48,023 bases of DNA, taken from the NCBI GenBank assembly GCA_964361095.1, contig CAYHZA010000005.1:19080-67102 (forward strand). The letters run 5' to 3'. This document shows, piece by piece, positions 36,410 through 46,820 of the stretch. The position numbers and the translations under genes were made by a program. Under the pieces are notes generated by a model. That model made no database searches. It saw only the letters and a program-made list of their open reading frames with translations, and had not been told where the DNA came from. This stretch comes from an uncultured Candidatus Saccharibacteria bacterium (GTDB taxonomy: Bacteria; Patescibacteriota; Minisyncoccia; UBA6257; 2-01-FULL-56-20). Position 1 is the stretch's first letter. Each line of letters opens with the position of its first letter.

Positions 36410-37915
36410 ATGGAACAATTCAAGTATTCAGCGGAACAAATTCTAAACTTCATTCGCACCAAGAAGGATGCGTTTTGGAGTCGCGAACGTGAAGCACGAC
36501 CGCTTAAATTGTTTCATGAAGCCGCTCGCCGCGTGCCGGCGTATAAGGATTTTTTAAAGAAAAACAAAGTAAATCCGGCAAAGATTAAAACGTTCAAGGA
36601 TTTCCAATTCGTTCCGCCGATTAGTAAGAAAAATTATCTGCGGCAGTATCCTTTGGAAAAACTGGTATGGGACGGAACGCTCAAAAAGCCCTTGGTTTTT
36701 ACTTCTACCTCGGGCTCCACGGGTGAGCCCTTCTATTTTCCGAGAAGCGAAAAATTGGACTGGGAGTATTCTATTTTAGCGGAGCTGTTTCTGGGAAATT
36801 CTTCTCTTAAAAAAACCGGACCGACACTGGTTATCGTCGGGCTGGGAATGGGTGCGTGGATTGGAGGGCTTATTACATATAAAGCGTTTGAAATCGCAAG
36901 CGGGCGTGGAAATTTTCCGATTTCTATTATTACCCCCGGAATTAATAAAGGTGAAATATTTCATGCCTTGAGGCAGTTGTCTCCGCATTACCAGCAGACA
37001 ATTTTAATCGGGTACCCTCCGTTTATTAAAGACATTATCGATGAAGCTGTTAGCGAGGAAAAAATTAATTTAAAAAAACTGAATTTAAGGATTGTAACCG
37101 CCGCTGAAGCATTTACCGAAAAATTCCGGGATTATTTAATCAATAAGACAGGGATTAAAAGTCCGTACTTAGATACATTGAACATTTATGGCACTGCCGA
37201 TATCGGTGCAATGGCATGGGAAACACCCTCTGCCATCCTTATTCGTCGGCTTGCGCTTAAAGATCAAAAAATATTCCGCGAAATATTTTCACCCATTTCA
37301 AAAACTCCAACACTTGCTCAATACAATTCATTTTTTATCACTTTCGAGGCGCCAAATGGGGAGATTCTTCTGAGCGGCAATAACACCATTCCTTTGGTGC
37401 GCTATGCGATAGGGGATCATGGTGGAGTTTTTGATTTTGGAGACGTTATCCAGAAATTAAGCAAGCATGGAGTTGATATTAAGCAAGAAATCAAAAAAGC
37501 TGGGATTGTGCGGGGCGTATATGAATTGCCCTATGTGTATGTGTATGAGCGCGCCGATTTTTCTACCAAACTATACGGCGCGATAATCTATCCGGAGCAT
37601 ATTCGAGAAGGACTCAGTCATCCATCGATTGAAAACATGATGACTGGGAAGTTTACAATGCTTACGCAGTTCGATAAACATCACAACGAATATTTAGAGA
37701 TTCACTTTGAGCTAAGGCCGAAAAATAAGCCTTCCCATAAATTGAGCAAAATACTGGAGGACATCGTTGTCGAAAGCTTACTACAGCATAATGCCGAATA
37801 TAGGAACAACTACAGTTCTATGCCGCATCGAGTCCGCCCACGGATTATTTTGTGGAATTACGAGCATCCGCTTCATTTTAAAAAAGGTATCAAGCAAAAA
37901 TGGGTTAAAAAATAA
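36410..37915 (+). CDS. Phenylacetate-CoA ligase/CoF390 synthetase-like adenylating enzyme
   Basis: RVPAY, STSGSTGEP, GYPPF, YGTAD, PLVRYAIGD. Confidence 0.88.
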   Translation: MEQFKYSAEQILNFIRTKKDAFWSREREARPLKLFHEAARRVPAYKDFLKKNKVNPAKIKTFKDFQFVPPISKKNYLRQYPLEKLVWDGTLKKPLVFTSTSGSTGEPFYFPRSEKLDWEYSILAELFLGNSSLKKTGPTLVIVGLGMGAWIGGLITYKAFEIASGRGNFPISIITPGINKGEIFHALRQLSPHYQQTILIGYPPFIKDIIDEAVSEEKINLKKLNLRIVTAAEAFTEKFRDYLINKTGIKSPYLDTLNIYGTADIGAMAWETPSAILIRRLALKDQKIFREIFSPISKTPTLAQYNSFFITFEAPNGEILLSGNNTIPLVRYAIGDHGGVFDFGDVIQKLSKHGVDIKQEIKKAGIVRGVYELPYVYVYERADFSTKLYGAIIYPEHIREGLSHPSIENMMTGKFTMLTQFDKHHNEYLEIHFELRPKNKPSHKLSKILEDIVVESLLQHNAEYRNNYSSMPHRVRPRIILWNYEHPLHFKKGIKQKWVKK

Positions 37916-37921
37916 ACCGAT

Positions 37922-39130
37922 ATGAAAAATGCAATTGACAAAGTATTAGAAAGAATAATCGCGCAGAAATCAAAAGTTGTAGCGGAATCGAAGCCACTCA
38001 TTTTGGACTTAAGTAAAACAAAAGACAAGCATACGATATCGAAGTTATTATCTAGCAGAAAGGTTCAACAAGTTATTGATGATTATAAGGAACAGTTGCA
38101 TGAGCTTTTTGCCGTTAAAAATCCAACATTGGTTTACGCTCAAAATTTCGCCGATAAGTTTGCCGAATATTTTAGTAATTTAGAGAAGCAAAAGCCGCTG
38201 TCGGAATACGGTCGTTGGGTTTATTTCCCGTGGCTTGGCGTAGTAACTCATATTTTAGAAGATAAGGATTTCCAATTAGTGAGAACGGCCCGGAATAAAA
38301 ATCTTATTACCAAAGAAGAGCAAGAAAGGTTTTACAATGCCGTAATCGGCATAGGCGGATTAAGCGTAGGCAATAGCGTCGCAATGGCGATTGTTTTACA
38401 AGGCGGAGGAAGGCATATTCGGCTTGCGGATTTTGATCGTCTTGCGCTTTCGAATACGAATAGAGTTAATGCCGGTATCCAAAATCTGGGACTTTTGAAG
38501 GTTGAAATAACGGCACGTCAGATATACACCTTGAATCCTTATGCGAAAGTTGAACTTTTTACGGAAGGATTAACCACAAAAAACATAAGAAAATTTTTTG
38601 TCGGTCCGCCCAAGTTGGATATTGTCGTGGATGAATTGGATAATATCGCGATTAAATTTCTTATTCGAGAAGAGGCAAAGCGCCATCGTTTAGCAGTTGT
38701 TATGGCTGCTGATAATGGAGATAATGCGGTGGTCGACATTGAGAGATACGATAAAAATCCGAAGCAGAAGTTTTTTCATGGGCGGCTGGGTAATGTAAAT
38801 TATAAGGGATTAACAGGTTTAGATAAGTTTGGAATCGGAAAAACTATCACAAAACATATTGGTCCGGAGAACGTAACCGAGCGGATGAAAGAGTCGCTTT
38901 TGGAAATGGGGAAAACAATTGTTTCATGGCCGCAACTTGGGGGAGCCGCGCTACTTAATGGTTCGGCGGTTGCCTATTGCGTCCGCAAGATTCTCAATGG
39001 ACAGCAGATTGAAAGCAATCGTGCGATTATCTCTTTGGACGAGCAGTTGCTACCGACGTATCATTCGTCCATCGAAAAAAAGAAACGCCTGAAGGCGGTT
39101 AACACATTCAAGAAAGTTTTTGGGTTATAG
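37922..39130 (+). CDS. ThiF family adenylyltransferase (Rv1355c/MoeY N-terminal-like)
   Basis: RWVYFPW, RTARN, IGGLSVG, LADFDRLALSNTNR, VVDELD, SWPQLG. Confidence 0.85.
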   Translation: MKNAIDKVLERIIAQKSKVVAESKPLILDLSKTKDKHTISKLLSSRKVQQVIDDYKEQLHELFAVKNPTLVYAQNFADKFAEYFSNLEKQKPLSEYGRWVYFPWLGVVTHILEDKDFQLVRTARNKNLITKEEQERFYNAVIGIGGLSVGNSVAMAIVLQGGGRHIRLADFDRLALSNTNRVNAGIQNLGLLKVEITARQIYTLNPYAKVELFTEGLTTKNIRKFFVGPPKLDIVVDELDNIAIKFLIREEAKRHRLAVVMAADNGDNAVVDIERYDKNPKQKFFHGRLGNVNYKGLTGLDKFGIGKTITKHIGPENVTERMKESLLEMGKTIVSWPQLGGAALLNGSAVAYCVRKILNGQQIESNRAIISLDEQLLPTYHSSIEKKKRLKAVNTFKKVFGL

Positions 39131-39333
39131 ATGAATCGAAATTATCGGCGCAAGTGGTTCTCAAGAAAGATTGCGTTTTTAAAGTTTGTAAGAAAGATGA
39201 TGAAACGATAATAGAAGCGTCGTGAGTGCTATTTGACGCTTTTATGACAGTCTAAGCTTTTTCTTCTTGGTTTTTTATTCTTTTTTGTATATAAAAATGC
39301 GACCTCGTAGTATAAGTATTACTCAGTCGCATT

Positions 39334-39834
39334 TTACTTCTTGTTTTCCTTTCGATTGCGCTCCTCGATCCGTTTTCTTGTTTCTTCGAGTGGTCGCACG
39401 TGCCATCGTGAACGTTCTTCGTCGGTTATCGAGGGGTCAACTTCATGAAGATGCCACAGTCCATCCAGAGTATCTCGTCTCATCTGCGTTCCATAAAGCT
39501 GTGGCTTTCCTTGAGACATAAGTGCTCGATCTTTTGCGGCTGCAGCAAGCCATAGCGGATCAACCTCATCCTTTTCTGGTCGATATCCCATTTCTGCGGC
39601 TTTTTTTGCGAGCTCGTGTGATTTTTCATAATGTTCCGTGGTTTTACCGTGGATGAGTATCAATGCAGCACGAAGATGGTCTGCGGGTGTGCGTATTGCC
39701 CTGGCATTAAGAAGATCCAGGATGCGCGTGAGGCGTTGTTCATCTCTTTGGGCAAAAAGTTGACTGTTCTTTTCGAAGAGTTTTTCGTGTCTGTCATGCT
39801 GGTCTTCGAGGTATAGTCTTTTAAGTTCGTCCAT
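39334..39834 (-). CDS. DUF6624-like hypothetical protein
   Basis: EDQHDR, AALILIHG, AAAKDR....GKPQLYGTQ. Confidence 0.7.
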   Translation of the reverse strand: MDELKRLYLEDQHDRHEKLFEKNSQLFAQRDEQRLTRILDLLNARAIRTPADHLRAALILIHGKTTEHYEKSHELAKKAAEMGYRPEKDEVDPLWLAAAAKDRALMSQGKPQLYGTQMRRDTLDGLWHLHEVDPSITDEERSRWHVRPLEETRKRIEERNRKENKK

Positions 39835-39992
39835 TATGTGCCTCGCTTGTCTTCAAGGGGTAGGTTGATGTTAATGAGCTTTGTTTCTGCTGTTGGTAGT
39901 TTGATGATTTTGTTGAAATTGTCAAGCTCTCGTAATGGTTCAATAGCTTCGAATCATTACGGGAGAATATATAGAAAATCAAAGTAATCAAA

Positions 39993-40028
39993 AGGGGGTT
40001 GAGTCTGTATCACGTAACTCAACCCCCT
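39993..40028 (-). terminator. Terminator of the ATP-grasp gene
   Basis: AGGGGGTTGAGT...ACTCAACCCCCT stem with a T-run on the minus strand. Confidence 0.7.
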
Positions 40029-40032
40029 GAGT

Positions 40033-41022
40033 TTATAGCGGAGGATTGGATAAAAGTTCTGCTATTGCACGGGAAATTGGCATTCCTGTTAGTTCTTCGA
40101 TCCAGCCCCACTGCCCACTGGGATTTATCTCGAGGAAGACATACTGACCTTCAGGAGTCAGAATCATGTCAATTGCCCCGAAGCTTAAGTCCCATGATTT
40201 CATCAGTTTCAAAAGAGCGTCTCGAACTTCATTTGGTAAATCGAATTGCTCGTGCCGGACGTTCCCAAAATCATATCGCCGCCAGTCGTCTTGAGTTCTT
40301 GTGCTATCCTGTGAATGTATCGCGCACGTAAAAACATTGTTGCCAACAATCGTAATACGCAGTTCAAGTTTCTTGGGGATGTATTCTTGCGCAAAGACAG
40401 GAGCGATTCGAATGCTCTCAAAATGCGTTCGTAGCTCATCCTCGGAGACTCGGTTAGTGTAGAGTGTGTAGATCTCGCCCGAGGCGGAGTCAACGAAAAG
40501 ATGTCCCTTGAGCATCTTAACCGCAATTGATCCTCCGCATGCGCGGCAAAATTCCAGAAGGTTTTTGGGGTCGTTGGTGATGATAGTTCTGGGAACAAGA
40601 AGACCATGGCGTGAGGCGCATTTCAACTGAAAAAACTTGTTATGCTCTAATAGTCGATTTGCGACGACAGGCTTATTCATCCAGAATGTCTCAAGGGTCG
40701 TATAGAGTGACCACAATGCAGCTGTGGATTCCTCTTTGACTAACTTGAAGTATCCTTCCGGAAGAACTGATAGGTTTTCGGGAGAGCGGGTTCCCCGATA
40801 CCAGCAGCTTTTTATCTCCATTAGAGAAATTATGGGGTTATCGGCAATCCTCAGCATGCCATCAAGGTTCTTGTCGCTAAGCTCTAGATTCACTTGCGAA
40901 TCGCGGGGAAACGTTTCCGTGTTGAACTTGAGATATTTTTGATCCATTTGCTCGAAGCACGCTATTACCGGGTTGACGCTAACATCGGGAGCGCTTGTTA
41001 AAATCAGAACTGCATCTTTCAC
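40033..41022 (-). CDS. ATP-grasp RiPP maturase (MvdC/MvdD graspetide synthetase-like)
   Basis: VLILT..D, FNTETFP, WMNKP, NKFFQL, VPRTIITND, QEYIPKKLELRITIVG, DWR, FGAIDMI, FLEINPSGQWGWIE; SD AAGGAGG. Confidence 0.92.
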   Translation of the reverse strand: MKDAVLILTSAPDVSVNPVIACFEQMDQKYLKFNTETFPRDSQVNLELSDKNLDGMLRIADNPIISLMEIKSCWYRGTRSPENLSVLPEGYFKLVKEESTAALWSLYTTLETFWMNKPVVANRLLEHNKFFQLKCASRHGLLVPRTIITNDPKNLLEFCRACGGSIAVKMLKGHLFVDSASGEIYTLYTNRVSEDELRTHFESIRIAPVFAQEYIPKKLELRITIVGNNVFTCAIHSQDSTRTQDDWRRYDFGNVRHEQFDLPNEVRDALLKLMKSWDLSFGAIDMILTPEGQYVFLEINPSGQWGWIEELTGMPISRAIAELLSNPPL

Positions 41023-41114
41023 CGAGGTTCCTCCTTCCGCTTAGTTGCTTATTGTGTTTTTAAGGTGCTGTGTCTAAAGTTAAGGTAAGCGCTATTCTAT
41101 ATATAAGTCAAGAT

Positions 41115-41873
41115 ATGGAGCAAAAAAAGTCCACGCAAGAAATTCCCCAAAGAACGAAGCAGCACCTCTTTAAGGTTCTTCAAGCTGCCGATGCAAAACG
41201 AAAATATCGTTGGGCAATTGATGTCTATGAGCACTATCGTAAAGTCTATTCCTTCGACGACGCGCTTGACTACAGGTTGGCGTTACTCTATGACCACTTG
41301 GTAATATTCAAAATAGAAAAACTATTAGATAAAACAAAAAAGCAGAAATTTTTAAAAAAATACCTTAAGAAAGCAGAGAACATTTATCGTGCAATAGTAA
41401 AAAGAAATCCAGATTACCACCTCGCATTCCACGGCTTGAGCCGTGTGTACCAAGCTCGCGCGCAATATCGAAAGGCAATCATGTACGCAAAAAGAGCATA
41501 TGCCCTTCTTAAAAAACTTCCAAAAAAGAGACGTGGTGTACTTGGTATAGGCAATGTGTTCTTATTGGCAGGCGACCACAAGAATGCCGAAAAATGGTTT
41601 AAAAAAGAATTGAACGATCTAGGTAAAAATCACCTGGGAGCGAATGCTAATGTAATGATGTTTTATCTTCAAACAAACAATCTTAAAAAAGGTTTGCCAT
41701 ACGCCCTCAAGACAGAAAAACTTCTTACAAGCGAACTTGCAAAGCCGATCTATCGAGGGGTCAATACAGGTTCAAGCAATAAAACGATCGGGTTGTTGAG
41801 AAAAAGGATTGATAAAATTAAGCAATTTAATTCTCACATGAAAAATAAACAGCCCACCGTTGGTGGGCTGTAG
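41115..41873 (+). CDS. TPR-repeat protein
   Basis: AENIYRAIVKRNPDYHLAFHGLSRVYQARAQYRKAIMYAKRA and IGNVFLLAGDHKNAEKWFKK TPR patterns. ATG at 41115 preferred over GTG at 41070. Confidence 0.8.
   Translation: MEQKKSTQEIPQRTKQHLFKVLQAADAKRKYRWAIDVYEHYRKVYSFDDALDYRLALLYDHLVIFKIEKLLDKTKKQKFLKKYLKKAENIYRAIVKRNPDYHLAFHGLSRVYQARAQYRKAIMYAKRAYALLKKLPKKRRGVLGIGNVFLLAGDHKNAEKWFKKELNDLGKNHLGANANVMMFYLQTNNLKKGLPYALKTEKLLTSELAKPIYRGVNTGSSNKTIGLLRKRIDKIKQFNSHMKNKQPTVGGL
41842..41871 (-). terminator. Terminator of precursor 1
   Basis: ACAGCCCACC-GTT-GGTGGGCTGT perfect stem with a T-rich tail on the minus strand, just past the precursor stop. Confidence 0.75.
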
Positions 41874-41886
41874 GAATACAGTTCCT

Positions 41887-42087
41887 TCAGTCGCTGCAGT
41901 CGTAGTCCAAGACGTCGTTGCCTCCTGTCGAGTTGATCTGGGTTGCAGTCGCCGAAGGCGATTCTTGGCCGACCCTTTGTATTCCCGGTTTTTCCAGGAA
42001 GTTTGCGATGAAGGGTTTCGGTCCGACGTGGTTGACTGAAAGCTCAATGAGAGCTTCTGGAGGAGCAGTTGTCATGGTTCGCATCAC
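41887..42087 (-). CDS. Graspetide (omega-ester peptide) precursor candidate
   Basis: SD GGAGGTG 6 nt before the GTG at 42087 (ATG follows at 42084). Leader KPFIANFLE resembles microviridin PFFARFL. Core SPSATATQINSTGGNDVLDYDCSD has Ser/Thr followed by Asp. Confidence 0.82.
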   Translation of the reverse strand: MMRTMTTAPPEALIELSVNHVGPKPFIANFLEKPGIQRVGQESPSATATQINSTGGNDVLDYDCSD

Positions 42088-42092
42088 TTTTT

Positions 42093-42166
42093 TCACCTCC
42101 TTTCTTTTGAATTTTTAAATTACTAACTAATTTCATAATGACAAGGTTTTTATGTTTTGTCAACTT
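42093..42166 (-). promoter_or_regulatory. 74-bp promoter+RBS cassette, copy 1
   Basis: TTGACA-17nt-CATTAT ... AAAGGAGGTGA; 70/74 identical to 44986-45059. Confidence 0.85.
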
Positions 42167-42205
42167 GCCATCTATTTCTGTAGCTTGATTCTGCTATAAT
42201 AAAAG

Positions 42206-42254
42206 TATGATTCCTCGCGAAGATATTCAGAAAATTCTTGAAGCGCAAGTATAG
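42206..42254 (+). pseudogene. Gene 5' stub MIPREDIQKILEA, copy 1
   Basis: Preceded by TGCTATAAT; 42206-42236 matches 46038-46068 at 29/31, both differences synonymous. Confidence 0.65.
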
Positions 42255-42337
42255 AAAAACGCTTGACAAATTTGCTTTAATGAGTTATTTTATGGGAAGT
42301 ATCTTGGTATAAATAAGGTCAAGAAAAGGAGAAACCG

Positions 42338-42478
42338 ATGCGGTGTCAACATGGTTCTCCGGAGGAATGCCGCTTCAGAAATTGCGAAGGGTCGCTCGCG
42401 GCCCCCGGTTCATGGAAAGATTTCTTCAAAAGACTTATTGAATTCCTCAAGTCTTATTTTAAAAGAATTAACTCATAG
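42338..42478 (+). CDS. Small 46-aa peptide (not in ORF track)
   Basis: AAGGAG SD and TTGACA near 42264. MRCQHGSPEECRFRNCEGSLAAPGSWKDFFKRLIEFLKSYFKRINS. Confidence 0.5.
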   Translation: MRCQHGSPEECRFRNCEGSLAAPGSWKDFFKRLIEFLKSYFKRINS

Positions 42479-42550
42479 CTGGACGACAAGTCCAGCTATT
42501 GTTTTTAAAATATAACATCCGCTTGCTATATATGTTCAAAACTTTCGAGC

Positions 42551-42588
42551 AAAAAAATGAGCTAAACGAATTTCTGTTTAGCTCATTT
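42551..42588 (-). terminator. Terminator of the radical SAM gene
   Basis: AAATGAGCTAAAC...GTTTAGCTCATTT 13-bp stem with a T-run on the minus strand. Confidence 0.8.
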
Positions 42589-42606
42589 GAATTCTGACAG
42601 GTTGGT

Positions 42607-43887
42607 TTAGGTTGGCGTTTCCTCAAGAGAACCCCATTCTCCAAGATATGGACTGTAGAGGCACTCTGTGGGTTTCGCCACGAAGCTTCCCGACTTATCC
42701 ATGTTTTTTGCTTTTGGCCTGCAATCGAAGCAGGCGTATCGGTACTCGCAATCCCTGCAAATTTCGATATGGTCCTTAGAGAGTTGTCTGATTCTTTGCG
42801 CACGTCCTTTCTTAAGGATGTTTTCCAGGCTTGTTTCCAGTACGTTGCCGTAGGACATATCTCGTTCCATAATACAGGGATATACATCGCCACTCGGTCC
42901 TACGCACACCTTCTTTGAAAAACAGTTGTGTCCATAGTGCCGTTGAGTAAAAATCTCTTTCGTGCACTTTGGAAAAACTGGTCTAGTGAGATACGTGGAG
43001 GAGATTAGCTTGGTAGGTACGAGATCATTGTTGCAACCCCGGCCACTGGGTCTTACCAGATCTACCCCTACGCGTGGAATCCCCAATTCCGTGAGAAAAC
43101 ATTTCGTCTCCTCAAGGTTGTCTTGATTGTGAATCATACCAACAATTCCGGCTCGCACCTCTAGCCCAGCGGCAAGCATCCTTTTGACGTTGCTTACCGT
43201 GTGAGCGTGACTATTTTTCCCGAGGGTGATTCGTTCATGAATTGCCGGATCGTCACCGTAGAAAGAAACTGCCACGTTGACTTTGTGCTCTTTCAATGCA
43301 TCCAGCATTCTGTCGGTGAGGATAGTTGCGTTTGTAAAAACCTCTACAAACGCGAAAGATCGCTTCCTCGCATATTTGATCAATCGGATGAGATTTTCAC
43401 CCAGTATCAGTGGTTCTCCACCGATAAATTGAAGTTTTTTACACCCGAGATCGGAGACCTGATCAATGACCGAAAGCCAATCTTGGATTGACATCCGATC
43501 TTTTCCGATCAGCGAGGGATTACTTCCCGCATAGCAGTGCACACACTTCAGATTACATCCGGCGGTGAGCTCAAGCCAAATGAAGCTCAGGAGTTTCTGG
43601 TCCTTATTGATGTCGACTTTCTGGATTTTTTCTCCTGCTTCGAGATATCTCCCTAACTTGGACTCAGCCAGTTTGTTCAAATACTCAATCGACTCACCCC
43701 TGTTCAGTTCAGGGTTTTCTGTGAATATGGCCTTGGGAGACAACCCTTGTTCACAGAGTTCCAGAAGTTTTCTGGCCTCCTGATCGATGGAGTATACGTT
43801 ACCGTCCTCCAAATTATAGATCGCGGCACGTTTAGCTCCGGTAACCAAAAACACATTTTCAGCAAGTCCGAACTTTCTGCTTTCCAT
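42607..43887 (-). CDS. Radical SAM/SPASM peptide maturase with N-terminal RRE-like domain
   Basis: CNLKCVHC, IGGEPL, FTNAT; SPASM C...GDVYPC...CRDCEYRYACFDCR...C; about 90-aa PqqD-like N-terminus; SD AAGGAG. Confidence 0.92.
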   Translation of the reverse strand: MESRKFGLAENVFLVTGAKRAAIYNLEDGNVYSIDQEARKLLELCEQGLSPKAIFTENPELNRGESIEYLNKLAESKLGRYLEAGEKIQKVDINKDQKLLSFIWLELTAGCNLKCVHCYAGSNPSLIGKDRMSIQDWLSVIDQVSDLGCKKLQFIGGEPLILGENLIRLIKYARKRSFAFVEVFTNATILTDRMLDALKEHKVNVAVSFYGDDPAIHERITLGKNSHAHTVSNVKRMLAAGLEVRAGIVGMIHNQDNLEETKCFLTELGIPRVGVDLVRPSGRGCNNDLVPTKLISSTYLTRPVFPKCTKEIFTQRHYGHNCFSKKVCVGPSGDVYPCIMERDMSYGNVLETSLENILKKGRAQRIRQLSKDHIEICRDCEYRYACFDCRPKAKNMDKSGSFVAKPTECLYSPYLGEWGSLEETPT

Positions 43888-43978
43888 ACACGCTCCTTAA
43901 TTAAGTCAAAGGTCTTGCTGTATAATCCTTTATAAGTGCTGTATTGTCAAGAAAGTAGTCATGATATAAACTATTAAT

Positions 43979-44788
43979 ATGATTCGTCTTTCATTTATAG
44001 TTGATAAAAGTTTTATATTGCAACACATACTGAAAAGTTTTTCGGACTGGCGTAGTGTCAAAGTTTTAAAACATAAACTCTGGAAACGAAATCAAAAACT
44101 TTACTATATCCTTGCGCAAAATATTGAACCTTTGACGTTCGCTGATAACTTTTCAGAGGAACTTAAAAGGGCCGTTAAGGATTCTCTATCTGACCTTTCT
44201 TTTATTTATAAGAACCCTTTGTTTAGAAAAATACTAAAAGAAACTGAGAAGTATAGATTATTTGTCAATGAGCAGTGGGAAAAGAATTATAATTTATCGC
44301 TGATGCATATGCGGGATATTACAAAGTTGCCGCTTGATACCGTGCAGTTAAATCTTGAGGTATATATTTCTCACCCGAAGCTATCCAGGGGCAGATCGTA
44401 TCCGGAACAGCGTGTCATCGCATGGGCTCATAGTGAGGATTGGAAGAACTATTCAACAGTATATCTTTGGCATGAAATTATGCATCACATTGCGTATAGC
44501 CGAAAAGGAAGCTCTCATCTTATGCATGCATTAATTGAATTAGCGTGCGATAACGAATTGCGGGTTAGACTTAATGGAAGAGGCGGATATTTCAGGGAGG
44601 GCGAATTCGATGTCGGTCATAACTATTTAGTGAAGTTAGAAAGAAAGATAACAGAAGAATGGAAAAAATATTTAAACGATCCCCGTACTAATGTTTATCA
44701 ATTAGAGAGAAAATTACGTTCCAAATTCTCAGAGGAGTTTTTAGTGTCGCGACAATCAGCGCTTAACGAGTGGGCTGAATGGCACTAA
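43979..44788 (+). CDS. HExxH motif protein (putative zinc metallopeptidase)
   Basis: VYLWHEIMHH with downstream HALIEL. Confidence 0.65.
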   Translation: MIRLSFIVDKSFILQHILKSFSDWRSVKVLKHKLWKRNQKLYYILAQNIEPLTFADNFSEELKRAVKDSLSDLSFIYKNPLFRKILKETEKYRLFVNEQWEKNYNLSLMHMRDITKLPLDTVQLNLEVYISHPKLSRGRSYPEQRVIAWAHSEDWKNYSTVYLWHEIMHHIAYSRKGSSHLMHALIELACDNELRVRLNGRGGYFREGEFDVGHNYLVKLERKITEEWKKYLNDPRTNVYQLERKLRSKFSEEFLVSRQSALNEWAEWH

Positions 44789-44817
44789 AAAATACGGCAT
44801 CCAAAGTGGATGCCGTA
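44787..44817 (-). terminator. Terminator of precursor 2
   Basis: TACGGCATCCA-CTT-TGGATGCCGTA-TTTTTT on the minus strand. Confidence 0.85.
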
Positions 44818-44836
44818 GCAGTTTTGCGAGTTTGAT

Positions 44837-44980
44837 CTATGACGGCATGCACGCCGGTTGGCAGTCGGGTCCGCACTGAGGAATGCATTCCGTGCTTTCG
44901 GGCGCAACTTGTTCTCCGTCTGGAGCGTTGTCACTCGACTGAAGTTTCTGGTTTCCCTGAGTGACCTTTGTAAGTTCCAA
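44837..44980 (-). CDS. Cys-rich RiPP precursor candidate, 47 aa (not in ORF track)
   Basis: SD GGAGGTG 6 nt before TTG. MELTKVTQGNQKLQSSDNAPDGEQVAPESTECIPQCGPDCQPACMPS. Own promoter and terminator. Confidence 0.82.
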   Translation of the reverse strand: MELTKVTQGNQKLQSSDNAPDGEQVAPESTECIPQCGPDCQPACMPS

Positions 44981-44985
44981 GTTTC

Positions 44986-45059
44986 TCACCTCCTTTCTTT
45001 TGAATTTGTAAATTACTAACTAGTTCCATAATGGCAAGGTTTTTATGTTTTGTCAACTT
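44986..45059 (-). promoter_or_regulatory. 74-bp promoter+RBS cassette, copy 2
   Basis: 70/74 identical to 42093-42166; TTGACA-17-CATTAT; AAAGGAGGTGA. Confidence 0.85.
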
Positions 45060-45062
45060 TTT

Positions 45063-45102
45063 ACCCGCCGAAGCCTTGGGCGAAGGAGTGGCGGAGGCGG
45101 GT
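45063..45102. repeat. REP-like palindrome
   Basis: ACCCGCC...GGCGGGT; the core CCGAAGCCTTGG(G)CGAAGGAG also occurs inverted at 29377-29405. Confidence 0.7.
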
Positions 45103-45165
45103 GCCGTCGGGGAGTAACTCACAGCCGTGGAAATCCTCCTTAATTTCTGGTATAATGTAAGTACC

Positions 45166-45405
45166 ATGGCAATTGATCAAAGGTTAAAGAAATACTTTTG
45201 GGATACGGATTTCAATGCCCTAGACAGAAAGAAGCACAAGCGTTATATCATTGAGCGTATTTTAGAGATGGGGGATGAGCCGGCGGCGGCGTGGATGAGG
45301 CAAACATTTTCCAAGGACGACATTATAAAGGTGCTCAATGCAACGAGAAATATATCGAAGCGGAGCATGCATTTTTGGCATCTCGTTCTCGACCGTTCTG
45401 TATGA
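45166..45405 (+). CDS. DUF6922-like putative antitoxin
   Basis: YFWDTD..LD..KH..YIIERILEMGD...FW; TGGTATAAT upstream. Confidence 0.8.
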   Translation: MAIDQRLKKYFWDTDFNALDRKKHKRYIIERILEMGDEPAAAWMRQTFSKDDIIKVLNATRNISKRSMHFWHLVLDRSV

Positions 45406-46025
45406 AAATACACGCTGAAGCGCTTCCAAAAGATACAGAGCGTCTTCTGCCTTCGCTTGCAGAGATGCCCTCTGTCAAAAACTTTTATCTTGCGGGTGGC
45501 ACCGCGCTCGCTTTGCAGATCGGGCATAGAATATCCGGCGATTTGGATTTCTTTTCGGAAGAAGCTTTTGACGAATCCTTGTTGATTCAAAAACTGTCTG
45601 GGTCCTATGAATTTCAGATAGAGAAGAAGTCAGAACAAACCGTACTTAGTATAATTAGCGGCGTCAAAGTATCTTTCCTCGGGTATCCCTATCCGCTCTT
45701 GGTTCCCGCTAATGAGGCACTCGGTGTACGCGTTGCGGATATTCGCGATATCGCCTGTATGAAAATTGACGCGGCGTCAAACCGCGGCACCAAGCGCGAT
45801 TTTATTGATCTGTACTGTATTATCCGCGCCGCGTTTTCCCTTTCGGACATCCTGCAGTTTTTTGAAAAGAAATATTCTATACTGCACTACAACATGATGC
45901 ACATCAAAAAGAGTTTGGTTTATTTTGAAGACGCCGAAGGCGACCCCATGCCGCAGATGCTTCAGCCGGTTTCATGGGAGGAGGTAAAATCATTCCTGGA
46001 ACGCGAGGCGTTGCGTCTTTCATAG
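45402..46025 (+). CDS. AbiEii/AbiGii family nucleotidyltransferase toxin
   Basis: FYLAGGTALALQIGHRISGDLDFF, MKIDA..RGTKRDFIDLY, SLVYFEDAE; ATGA coupling. Confidence 0.9.
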   Translation: MKIHAEALPKDTERLLPSLAEMPSVKNFYLAGGTALALQIGHRISGDLDFFSEEAFDESLLIQKLSGSYEFQIEKKSEQTVLSIISGVKVSFLGYPYPLLVPANEALGVRVADIRDIACMKIDAASNRGTKRDFIDLYCIIRAAFSLSDILQFFEKKYSILHYNMMHIKKSLVYFEDAEGDPMPQMLQPVSWEEVKSFLEREALRLS

Positions 46026-46037
46026 GCGGCGTCTTAA

Positions 46038-46077
46038 TATGATCCCTCGCGAAGATATTCAAAAAATTAGCAACTAG
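46038..46077 (+). pseudogene. Gene 5' stub MIPREDIQKI, copy 2
   Basis: Direct repeat of 42206-42236. Confidence 0.65.
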
Positions 46078-46820
46078 CCGAGCAAATTCTTAATCTGCCT
46101 CAAATTATTTAAATAAATGCAATCATATTTCTTTTTAATCTTCGTTTTTTTTCGATAAATAATTGCCGCACCGCAGCCAACTTTTCGAGCCCCCATAATG
46201 TCCGTGGGATAACTATCGCCAACGCATAAGATTTGACTTGGTTTCAGCGAAAATTTATTTGCAATGAGCAAGTACAACTTGGGATTTGGCTTACTGATGC
46301 CAATGTCGCAAGAAATTGTAATGTAATCGAAATACCTATTTAGGCGGAAATAATTGATTATTCGTTTTGTAGATTTGTAACTATTAGTCGCTAGGGCAAG
46401 TTTTATTTTCCGCTTTTTCAAGAATGGTAATATTTTTATTGCATCGCTATACATTTTGTGTATTCGAGGATTGCCATAAAACTGATTGGAGATTTCGCGA
46501 TTTATTGATCTTGCTACTTTTCTGTCCTGCAACCCCAGTTTTTTCAGCACTAAATAATGAAAATCAAACCACCAATTTTCAATATTTATCCTTTTGTAAT
46601 GCCTCAACGAGGATCGAGTAATTTTCTTATTACCATACTCCTTCCACGTTTCGTTAAAAGACCTATTTATCATTCGTGGATGAAGATCGAATCCATACTT
46701 TTTGAGTACACTTTGATAAAAAATCCCACGAGAAGGGAAGGGTCGCACGATTGTGTAGTGAAGGTCGAAAATGACTGCTTTATAGCCTACCTGTGAATTT
46801 TCTCTAAATATTCTCCCCAT
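46074..46820 (-). CDS. HAD-superfamily hydrolase (class IA)
   Basis: AVIFDLHYTI, LATN, KPNP, VGDSYPTDIMGA. Confidence 0.85.
   Translation of the reverse strand: MGRIFRENSQVGYKAVIFDLHYTIVRPFPSRGIFYQSVLKKYGFDLHPRMINRSFNETWKEYGNKKITRSSLRHYKRINIENWWFDFHYLVLKKLGLQDRKVARSINREISNQFYGNPRIHKMYSDAIKILPFLKKRKIKLALATNSYKSTKRIINYFRLNRYFDYITISCDIGISKPNPKLYLLIANKFSLKPSQILCVGDSYPTDIMGARKVGCGAAIIYRKKTKIKKKYDCIYLNNLRQIKNLLG

Follow-up and report, generated by a model that had tools for sequence, protein, structure and literature searches.

The window analysed here, a stretch of 48,023 nucleotides from contig CAYHZA010000005.1 (assembly GCA_964361095.1), carries at positions 39993-45059 six genes that are arranged in two modules of the same gene order and orientation. 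Module 1 consists of an ATP-grasp ligase gene on the minus strand, a gene for a tetratricopeptide repeat (TPR) protein on the plus strand and a small gene for a putative peptide precursor (precursor 1) on the minus strand. In module 2 the corresponding places are taken by a radical S-adenosylmethionine (SAM)/SPASM enzyme gene with a predicted recognition element (RRE) for peptides that are made ribosomally and modified post-translationally (RiPPs), by a gene for a protein with an HExxH motif and by a second precursor gene (precursor 2), on the minus, plus and minus strand, respectively. This twin-module arrangement had been described from the letters of the DNA alone (below, the sequence-only reading); gene coordinates and Pfam assignments agree with it, and it lies far beyond chance. 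In our view, the locus probably represents two autonomous RiPP modules juxtaposed in a lower-GC, rearranged stretch of a chromosome of Parcubacteria type, i.e. of the candidate phyla radiation (CPR).

The host is a small-genome CPR organism, as the sequence-only reading had supposed, and its chromosome is of Parcubacteria type. Its genome comprises 822,488 bases (0.82 Mb) in 16 contigs, with completeness of 98.7% and contamination of 0.1%; genomes of its relatives measure 0.4-1.3 Mb, and named homologs come from Parcubacteria, Paceibacterota, Harrisonbacteria, Wolfebacteria and "Patescibacteria group" records. Positions 1-35000 of the window are full of housekeeping genes (a DNA polymerase III clamp-loader subunit, MreB, a penicillin-binding protein, two tRNA synthetases, phosphoglycerate kinase and a release factor). 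GC content is 0.41-0.44 from 36 kb on versus 0.43-0.50 earlier in the window. DNA of the locus was found in groundwater metagenomes from two studies.

Module 1 and described graspetide clusters

The ligase gene of module 1 (40033-41022, minus strand) encodes a protein of 329 amino acids that matches the MvdD pre-ATP-grasp domain PF21068 with 45.3 bits (cut-off 27) and RimK with 28.6 bits. Models of MvdD, MvdC and SAV_5884-type maturases match it at E values from 2.4e-69 to 2.3e-67, all of them under their cut-offs: TIGR04184 (MvdD) at 2.4e-69 with 233.9 bits (equivalog cut-off 475) and TIGR04185 (MvdC) at 2.6e-69 with 233.8 bits (equivalog cut-off 425). The grasp-with-spasm model TIGR04192 gives 138.8 bits, likewise under its cut-off of 230. 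Solved structures matched by sequence are 5ig9 (E 2.7e-49), 7m4s (9.3e-45) and 7mgv (1e-37), together with 5ig8. We take chains 5ig9 and 5ig8 to be the microviridin ligases MdnC and MdnB. In PDB, both are deposited merely as "ATP grasp ligase". By these matches, the enzyme is an ATP-grasp peptide ligase of the MvdC/MvdD (graspetide) type, the assignment already made by the sequence-only reading.

Precursor 1 (41887-42087, minus strand) has 65-66 amino acids, with the motif PFIANFL in its leader and a core that is rich in threonine/serine and aspartate, contains one cysteine and ends with DYDCSD; no Pfam family matches it. The middle gene (41115-41873, plus strand) encodes the TPR protein of 252 amino acids (TPR_12, 30.9 bits, cut-off 30.1), whose family comprises 16 clusters in a large database. 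When the host genome was searched, a second TPR homolog proved absent. A second ATP-grasp gene is found 2.2 kb past the window end (G000:C5:69310-70326, minus strand), its product being 50% identical to the first; it lies about 100 nucleotides from the contig end, and any upstream partner or precursor would fall off the contig.

Homologs of the ligase are present in 19 of 301 genomes of the order. In the four closest relatives (genomes G038, G045, G118 and G130; 46-50% identity), the ligase gene is divergent from a gene for a TPR homolog (35-42% identity), and the order of ATP-grasp gene, divergent TPR gene and convergent precursor is kept in all four, or in five of five if the window is counted. 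The precursors that occupy the corresponding position have a P-F-x-x-x-F/L leader and a GDY..DD tail in common; they were identified through position and motif, since tblastn in 11 loci found no relative of precursor 1 by sequence. Two tandem precursors occur in G130. A cysteine is also present in the G118 precursor, and the G038 precursor has none. Two more distant loci, both in genome G010, carry precursor, ligase and TPR-like gene in this order on a single strand, the TPR-like genes matching only weakly (tblastn E 0.014 and 0.39).

The resemblance to microviridin-type ligases (5ig9, 5ig8), AMdnB and chryseoviridin CdnC extends over the full length of the protein (E 2.7e-49 to 1e-37) and includes the pre-ATP-grasp domain. 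Moreover, the PFIANFL leader of precursor 1 resembles the microviridin leader helix PFFARFL. Unlike microviridin systems, the module has one ligase, which stays under the MvdC and MvdD cut-offs, and no GNAT or ABC/C39 gene lies nearby. Because the core of precursor 1 is free of lysine, esters only would be expected in its product.

Graspetide clusters have been described from CPR bacteria by Makarova et al. in 2022 (PMC8939145). In that source, ATP-grasp enzymes of branches 1 and 2 go together with precursors that have a Phhx(1,2)h leader motif and a T...T...D...D core, TPR proteins "of unclear role" are associated with the loci, and some loci also hold SPASM enzymes and zincin peptidases. Module 1 has in common with these clusters the MvdC/D-type ligase with MvdD-type pre-ATP-grasp domain, the small CPR genome, the adjacent small precursor with Phhx(1,2)h leader (here PFIANFL) and Thr/Ser...Asp core, and the TPR protein. 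On this gene content, module 1 is a graspetide cluster of the described CPR type. The claim of the sequence-only reading that such a system is undescribed and unexpected in CPR must therefore be given up for module 1. As far as the available part of the source goes, SPASM and zincin genes are treated there as extra tailoring of graspetides, no precursor was found for most branch-2 loci, and a shared promoter cassette such as the one reported below goes unmentioned. Unlike in those clusters, the radical SAM/HExxH pair of the window has a precursor family of its own and occurs mostly without ATP-grasp.

As for the course of events in module 1, we infer that the PFIANFL leader of precursor 1 binds to the MvdD-type pre-ATP-grasp domain. 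The ligase would then form ATP-dependent side-chain esters between threonine/serine and aspartate in the C-terminal core, and the TPR protein would be a clade-specific accessory of the module.

Module 2 and its peptide family

The maturase gene of module 2 (42607-43887, minus strand) encodes 426 amino acids and matches Radical_SAM with 80.9 bits and SPASM with 43.2 bits. In an alignment of 15 sequences, C111, C115, C118 and the cysteines of the SPASM domain show little or no variation; the enzyme has both the CxxxCxxC motif and the SPASM domain by which an RRE-dependent maturase is recognised. The RRE ahead of the barrel, for which a Pfam PqqD match was not obtained, is seen in the predicted model only (mean predicted local distance difference test, pLDDT, 82.5), where residues 6-81 form four strands (6-34) and then three helices (36-75) at pLDDT 80-95. 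According to Foldseek, the nearest solved structures are CteB (E 1.6e-17, 423 columns), SuiB, SkfB and TigE; matches to PDB by sequence are SkfB, CteB and anSME only. The best NCBIfam match is TIGR04193, the "grasp-with-spasm" maturase, with 110.3 bits against a cut-off of 175 and over residues 312-419, the SPASM end, only. StsB (99.5 versus 625), PapB (64.4 versus 340) and AlbA (72.2 versus 850) are under cut-off as well. Pfam matches, the RRE of the predicted model and the likeness to CteB all agree with the earlier assignment of an RRE-radical-SAM/SPASM enzyme.

Precursor 2 (44837-44980, minus strand) has 47 codons, an N-terminal ELTKVT motif and a core, CIPQCGPDCQPACMPS, that is made of four C-x-P-x units. 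It has no Pfam match, and E2, V6, T7 and two cysteines are invariant in an alignment of 15 sequences. With the systems of the sactipeptide/ranthipeptide maturases CteB, SkfB, AlbA and PapB, module 2 shares the combination of RRE, radical SAM and SPASM domains and a short Cys-rich precursor. Unlike these systems, it is distinguished by the seven-residue N-terminal ELxKVT leader motif, by the C-x-P-x core, by a constant unnamed HExxH partner and by the occurrence, in related loci, of enzyme-core fusions without RRE.

To describe the family, 87 loci with an HExxH gene were collected, 7 of them from species genomes and the other 80 from among 218 metagenome matches, and features were counted in the fetched flanks. 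A radical SAM homolog occurs in 49 of the 87 loci. Small open reading frames (ORFs) of ELxKVT type, with N-terminal (M)E-L/I-x-K-V-T and a Cys/Pro-rich tail, were detected in 24; all 24 are on the strand opposite to the HExxH gene and converge on it, with the stop codon -3 to +66 nucleotides from the HExxH stop. A second type of peptide, ..CC[KR]PGPCSPK, is located upstream of the radical SAM gene in 11 loci. An ATP-grasp gene is present in the flanks of none of the 87 loci, and a TPR homolog in those of two.

In a contig of Paceibacterota (L029, 97-3784), a homolog of the window TPR protein (42% identity) comes directly after the HExxH gene. The preceding gene, for 675 amino acids, would by reading of its N-terminal sequence encode a prolyl oligopeptidase, and no maturase or precursor was found on this 6.6-kb contig.

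Six of the 87 loci (L028, L035, L057, L067, L082 and L096) encode radical SAM proteins that end in Cys/Pro-rich tails. These fused proteins have about 305-350 amino acids, and their genes converge on the HExxH gene at a distance of 8-88 nucleotides. Five of the six align to the window enzyme only from residue 88-100 on, i.e. without the RRE, and the tails in L028 and L035 consist of two tandem CVPQCGPDC.PACIPSP-like units. As the fusion occurs in several diverged sequences, it provides good evidence for joint action of the enzyme and the Cys/Pro peptide, and loss of the RRE where the core is attached fits a substrate that is read in cis. It is possible that the fused proteins are self-modifying enzyme-core fusions. 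Such a fusion is known from borosins, where OphMA, an enzyme of the methyltransferase class, modifies its own core. Like OphMA, the six related loci join the peptide part, here a Cys/Pro tail, to the C-terminus of the presumed maturase, with a metallopeptidase-like neighbour; unlike in borosins, the enzyme is a radical SAM protein and not a methyltransferase, and the window itself has the split form. The sequence MELAKF in the fused proteins was considered as a remnant of the leader and dropped, as its aligned counterpart in the window enzyme is the SPASM linker.

The HExxH protein (43979-44788, plus strand; 269 amino acids) belongs to an unnamed family without Pfam or NCBIfam match. In a large database, its relatives form 93 clusters (at 90%), every one labelled "hypothetical" and lacking a Pfam domain; named ones are mostly from CPR. 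In 61 aligned sequences the HExxH motif (H165, E166 and H169 in the window protein), a downstream N-E pair that includes E193, and H183, D191 and R195 are invariant. None of the 61 members reaches a Pfam family, and two touch Peptidase_MA_2 (best E 0.017). An HExxH motif followed by an invariant N-E about 23 residues on is the metal-site spacing of gluzincins (thermolysin, M1 enzymes), and E193 would accordingly serve as a metal ligand.

The predicted model of the HExxH protein is confident (pLDDT 94.6). Foldseek retrieved nothing from PDB at E <= 0.001, the weak top rows being zincin peptidases. In exhaustive structural alignment, catalytic domains of M1 aminopeptidases ranked at the top (1z1w, Z 7.5, 166 residues, root-mean-square deviation 3.9) and thermolysin reached Z 6.2; peptidase matches as a group have Z 7.5-6.2 over about 165 residues at a deviation of 3.9-4.1, and all Z values are below 8, which is moderate and may reflect a common arrangement. 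A search of all PDB sequences with the family profile gave nothing meaningful (best E 0.26, to a glucosaminidase). Complex prediction for the HExxH protein and precursor 2, run without controls, scored 0.00 against a mark of 0.32. On the basis of the model and its structural matches, we favour a role as leader peptidase.

An oxygenase is the rival to be considered here, unlikely as we hold it to be. The HExxH protein would then be an Fe(II)/alpha-ketoglutarate (alpha-KG) enzyme like ChlH, BpmH or PflC, with the core as its substrate for hydroxylation or oxidative cleavage, e.g. at the invariant Asp or Gln of C-x-P-x, while the rest of the model would stand. We keep this rival alive since such enzymes were long misannotated as peptidases: HExxH proteins that neighbour a radical SAM enzyme in RiPP clusters, or are fused to one, have turned out to be alpha-KG oxygenases of zincin-like fold (PMC12636437, which defines their family as IPR026337). 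As with ChlH, BpmH and PflC/PosC, an HExxH protein of predicted zincin-like fold is located beside a radical SAM maturase in the window. The solved HExxH domain of ChlB (8s5f) is indeed among its structural matches, but at Z 4.5 (153 residues, deviation 4.8) it is outranked by classical gluzincin peptidases at Z 7.5-6.2. Similarly, the invariant Arg195, His183 and Asp191 beyond the metal motif would suit an oxygenase, whereas the spacing between HExxH and the N-E pair is that of gluzincins. TIGR04267 (mod_HExxH), the model for alpha-KG HExxH oxygenases, which presumably corresponds to IPR026337, found nothing in the host genome even at E <= 10 and did not match the HExxH protein itself at E <= 0.01.

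The steps of module 2 can be outlined as follows. The ELTKVT leader of precursor 2 would dock at the RRE, and the radical SAM/SPASM enzyme would cross-link or otherwise modify the four C-x-P-x units, most likely with thioethers from cysteine to carbon. The HExxH protein, a gluzincin-like constant partner of the peptide family, would trim the leader.

Judged from these comparisons, module 2 is a member of an unnamed, mostly CPR family and, as far as our searches go, a variant of radical SAM RiPP systems that has not been described. In the literature, only PMC8939145 was directly relevant to this system; of that source, the supplements on clusters and precursors may already list these genes.

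Expression signals and probable independence of the modules

Each precursor gene is preceded by one copy of a 78-nucleotide cassette on the minus strand (copy 1, 42089-42166; copy 2, 44982-45059). The copies are 94% identical, and they are the only two in the genome of 822,488 bases (E 2.3e-35 and 9.7e-29). Read on the minus strand, the cassette shows a promoter-like site, TTGACA-17-CATTAT with TG extension, then about 45 A/T-rich nucleotides and then the Shine-Dalgarno stretch AAGGAGGTGA; promoter-like site, 5' untranslated region (UTR) and Shine-Dalgarno sequence recur in copy 2, and likeness stops one base ahead of the start codons. Two separate precursors behind one duplicated expression cassette had been claimed by the sequence-only reading, and the claim stands except for the length, which had been given as 74 nucleotides.

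In the register of the cassette, precursor 1 starts with GTG at 42087 (the next codon is ATG at 42084) and precursor 2 with TTG at 44980, in both cases 8 nucleotides after GGAGG. Starts at the first GTG of the ORF list were rejected, because this GTG falls within the Shine-Dalgarno sequence. Seventeen distinct homologs of precursor 2 start at the equivalent residue, 11 of them with ATG.

Tracing the cassette in relatives, as the sequence-only reading had proposed, indicated that it is specific to the host genome. The whole cassette was not found in 100 other genomes of the family, and partial matches of 18-42 nucleotides near the ribosome-binding site occur in 13 of them. The unit would therefore be a duplication within the host genome, or a product of gene conversion, and its 3' part has the look of a strong context for ribosome binding, one which these bacteria reuse. 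Locus L138 (G011:C3, around 1410-1661) has a Cys-rich small ORF behind another SPASM enzyme, and the ribosome-binding context of this ORF matches 24 nucleotides of the window cassette at 96%.

All four precursor and maturase genes end in terminators of their own, in agreement with the sequence-only reading. The terminator of the ATP-grasp gene (39994-40028, minus strand) has a 13-bp stem of -22.6 kcal/mol (z -4.69) and a U-rich tail; it was missed by a general terminator scan, and none of 200 shuffles folds as well. The precursor 1 terminator (41849-41871, minus strand) is located within the last TPR codons and has 10 pairs, 7 of them GC, followed by TTATTTTT. Thirteen pairs form the terminator of the radical SAM gene (42555-42588, minus strand), and 11 pairs followed by TTTTTT that of precursor 2 (44793-44817, minus strand). 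The Rfam match RefA9 (28.8 bits versus 49), positioned on the terminator at 41817-41871, was dismissed as below threshold; it was the sole match in 39000-46500. Both precursors would be short monocistronic genes, each set between a strong promoter/5' UTR/Shine-Dalgarno copy and its own terminator, and this suggests that they are expressed jointly and above the level of their enzymes.

Maturase and middle genes diverge at start-to-start distances of 93 nucleotides in module 1 (41022 to 41115) and 92 nucleotides in module 2 (43887 to 43979), exactly as reported before. Across homologous loci the distance ranges from 28 to 121 nucleotides, and the near-equality is therefore not a constant of the families. 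The two divergent intergenic regions (41023-41114 and 43888-43978) have a global alignment score of 4, which none of 500 shuffles reaches (-11.2 +/- 4.9) and which random pieces of the window reach in 2 of 500 and 1 of 500 cases; the likeness is weak. Three of the six TGCTKTRT boxes in the window fall within these regions, TGCTGTGT at 41066 and TGCTGTAT at 43916 and 43937. Boxes and likeness together hint at a common operator.

For the TPR and HExxH genes themselves, no recognisable Shine-Dalgarno sequence was seen (41097-41114 and 43944-43983), and a TATA-rich hexamer lies 7-13 nucleotides before the ATG of both. Messenger RNAs of the middle genes may be short-leader or leaderless.

How far the common layout implies a common system is a separate matter. 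The sequence-only reading had proposed a reusable layout with interchangeable pairs of enzyme and peptide. Conservation of the layout within each family supports it, but the middle genes differ in class (a TPR repeat protein versus a predicted zincin-like fold, each assigned separately), and each module also occurs alone. In genome G038 (100% complete), module 1 is present with no SPASM match; genome G021 (96% complete, searched except for 1000 bases) keeps the HExxH gene and an intact ELTKVT precursor, with no SPASM protein found. Orientations differ between families.

A third type of module was observed beside the HExxH gene. It combines a SagB-YcaO fusion (728 amino acids in G021) and a zinc-peptidase-like gene of DUF2268 type with a convergent Cys-rich precursor of its own, and is represented by L027 (G021:C1, 8069-11310) and L054/L056; fusion and DUF2268 gene accompany the HExxH gene in 4 of the 87 loci, which are two pairs of near-identical loci. 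In G021 this module occupies the place that the radical SAM gene has in the window. A replacement of radical SAM by YcaO on the same peptide was considered and dropped: the YcaO operon has its own DUF2268 gene and convergent Cys-rich precursor, so that the swap is merely positional. The N-terminus of the radical SAM enzyme has no significant BLASTP match to the G021 fusion (best E 0.44), and comparison of the HExxH profile with the G021 DUF2268 protein revealed no link (hhalign probability 0.5%). The accessory genes of the three module types (TPR, HExxH, DUF2268) thus differ in kind. The neighbourhood fits islands of compact modules but shows no common scaffold.

Beyond the two autonomous modules, we put forward a broader reading that is tentative as a whole and quite possibly wrong. 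According to it, HExxH protein, radical SAM enzyme and peptides with ELxKVT leader and Cys-Pro core would constitute a RiPP class of their own, so far undescribed and widespread in CPR, with a new gluzincin-like enzyme family as its defining partner. Radical SAM enzymes without RRE would carry their own core and yield self-modifying, protease-released RiPPs. RiPP islands of CPR would be built by shuffling of modules that each combine a maturase (ATP-grasp, radical SAM, YcaO), an accessory and a convergent precursor, and the host would copy the promoter/UTR/Shine-Dalgarno cassette between unrelated precursors and co-express two chemistries in this way.

Several observations speak against the readings preferred here, and the empty Foldseek search and moderate Z values of the HExxH protein are to be counted among them. 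Both the ATP-grasp ligase and the radical SAM enzyme are under every NCBIfam equivalog cut-off, and consequently neither belongs to a named subfamily. No typed peptide was found in 46 of the 87 HExxH loci, where many of the peptide-less contigs are short and the filters were built from peptides already seen. The lack of SPASM in G021 implies that the radical SAM step is not always needed to keep the pair of HExxH gene and precursor. Finally, three features suggest that the two modules are maybe not independent: the cysteine in the core of precursor 1, the grasp-with-spasm maturase as best NCBIfam match of the radical SAM enzyme, and a locus in genome G291, in which an ATP-grasp gene is directly beside a set of radical SAM enzyme, Cys-peptide and HExxH gene and no separate graspetide precursor was found.

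These three features would be explained by a single hybrid pathway as in Haft's grasp-with-spasm, in which ATP-grasp and radical SAM enzymes have one peptide substrate, or several, in common. For example, a thioether could be formed by the radical SAM enzyme at the cysteine of precursor 1, or the ATP-grasp ligase could esterify precursor 2, with the cassette serving one product set. Grasp-with-spasm systems and the window have ATP-grasp and SPASM maturases in one locus in common, and both models of that system match (TIGR04193 the radical SAM enzyme, TIGR04192 the ligase); both matches are nevertheless under cut-off, as given above. A cysteine occurs in the precursors of the window and of G118, but the G038 precursor is free of it, and the G038 genome has no SPASM domain. 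The near-identical cassettes imply co-expression, yet the modules differ in precursor, leader motif and partner genes and are found alone elsewhere. SPASM enzymes and zincin peptidases are present in some CPR ATP-grasp loci (PMC8939145); against this, fetched stretches of the four closest ATP-grasp/TPR loci contain no radical SAM or HExxH gene, just as flanks of HExxH loci contain no ATP-grasp. We consider the hybrid pathway improbable and the modules probably autonomous.

Still less probability can be given to the view that precursor 2 is not a RiPP substrate at all, but a small Cys-rich peptide that binds metal or an Fe-S cluster as a partner of the radical SAM enzyme and that would, in the fused forms, stand in for the SPASM domain's second half. 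Its C-x3-C-x3-C-x3-C pattern is compatible with this, and the Cys/Pro tail of the six fused proteins begins at the site of the CxxCx5CxxC SPASM motif of the window enzyme. Stand-alone enzymes, however, retain the full SPASM domain along with the RRE, and the core motif is tandemly duplicated in L028 and L035. The peptide is kept in G021, where a SPASM enzyme is missing; on the other hand, a conserved N-terminal leader-like motif joined to a hypervariable core, as seen in 17 distinct peptides and that of the window, is what marks a precursor.

The region is not chimeric, which answers a doubt that the sequence-only reading itself had raised. In two runs of the source study, a single contig of 12,985 nucleotides spans 39000-45039, a stretch that takes in the two modules and cassette copy 1, with 0 differences, and contigs of the second study cover 41068-42388 and 42646-45039, again with 0 differences, with a piece at 42407-42661 as bridge. 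That contigs in three of four compared runs (X1, X2 and X4) stop at 45039, inside cassette copy 2, is expected for a repeat, and as the next contig starts overlapping at 45017 and continues onward, and housekeeping genes are on the same contig, an assembly or binning artefact of the 78-nucleotide repeat is an exceedingly improbable source of the twin arrangement.

Neighbouring genes and meaning of the locus

Genes ahead of the locus include a PaaK-like adenylate-forming protein (36410-37915, plus strand) and a ThiF/E1-like protein (37922-39130, plus strand; ThiF 67.2 bits). The latter matches NF005901 with 338.6 bits (cut-off 476) and covers positions 6-346 of 722, i.e. the N-terminal half only of this Rv1355c-type family of ThiF and nitroreductase. 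In genome G011 (L032, 3276-5758), a PaaK-like/ThiF-like pair together with a nitroreductase piece is located beside a radical SAM/HExxH module in opposite relative orientation, and L112 has a PaaK-like gene. By this association, the pair may represent a further peptide-modifying unit.

The region bears marks of rearrangement, among them the half-length ThiF-like match and the opposite orientation in G011 just given. Truncated 5' ends of nitroreductase genes are found at 42206, 46038 and G000:C5:68499, with 15, 10 and 28 codons, respectively. The relics at 42206-42236 (plus strand; 15 codons, then a stop) and 46038-46068 (plus strand) are copies of a 31-nucleotide repeat with 94% identity that flanks module 2 and a toxin-antitoxin pair, and the former resembles the N-terminus of the nitroreductase piece of G011. 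They look like recombination scars among ThiF-nitroreductase genes. The toxin-antitoxin-like pair (45127-46025, plus strand) comes directly after cassette copy 2; its overlapping genes encode a DUF6922 protein and a nucleotidyltransferase of AbiEii type.

Two small genes complete the picture. p166 (39334-39834, minus strand) encodes a helical protein of 166 amino acids with a weak DUF6624 match only (E 0.0036). Its homologs, up to 67% identical, are present in the flanks of three of the 87 HExxH loci; they abut the HExxH gene in L045 and L079 and lie about 4.2 kb off in L052. Between the modules, a stand-alone gene for 46 amino acids (42338-42478, within a unit at 42263-42499, plus strand) is equipped with a promoter-like site, the Shine-Dalgarno sequence AAGGAG and a terminator of its own. 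Its product contains three cysteines at the N-terminus, and its C-terminus looks like a cationic amphipathic helix; tblastn in 11 loci gave no match below E 0.49. No tRNA was detected by a scan of the window.

CPR bacteria, whose genomes are minimal, live on other microbes, and modified peptides count among the few candidate means by which they may deal with hosts and rivals. Module 1 adds another case to a known picture. The duplicated cassette is a clean natural case of unrelated precursor genes wired to one expression signal, and natural fusions of enzyme and core could give a very compact system for heterologous study. Module 2 points to a coherent, mostly CPR peptide family, apparently unnamed, whose precursors follow an easily recognised rule.

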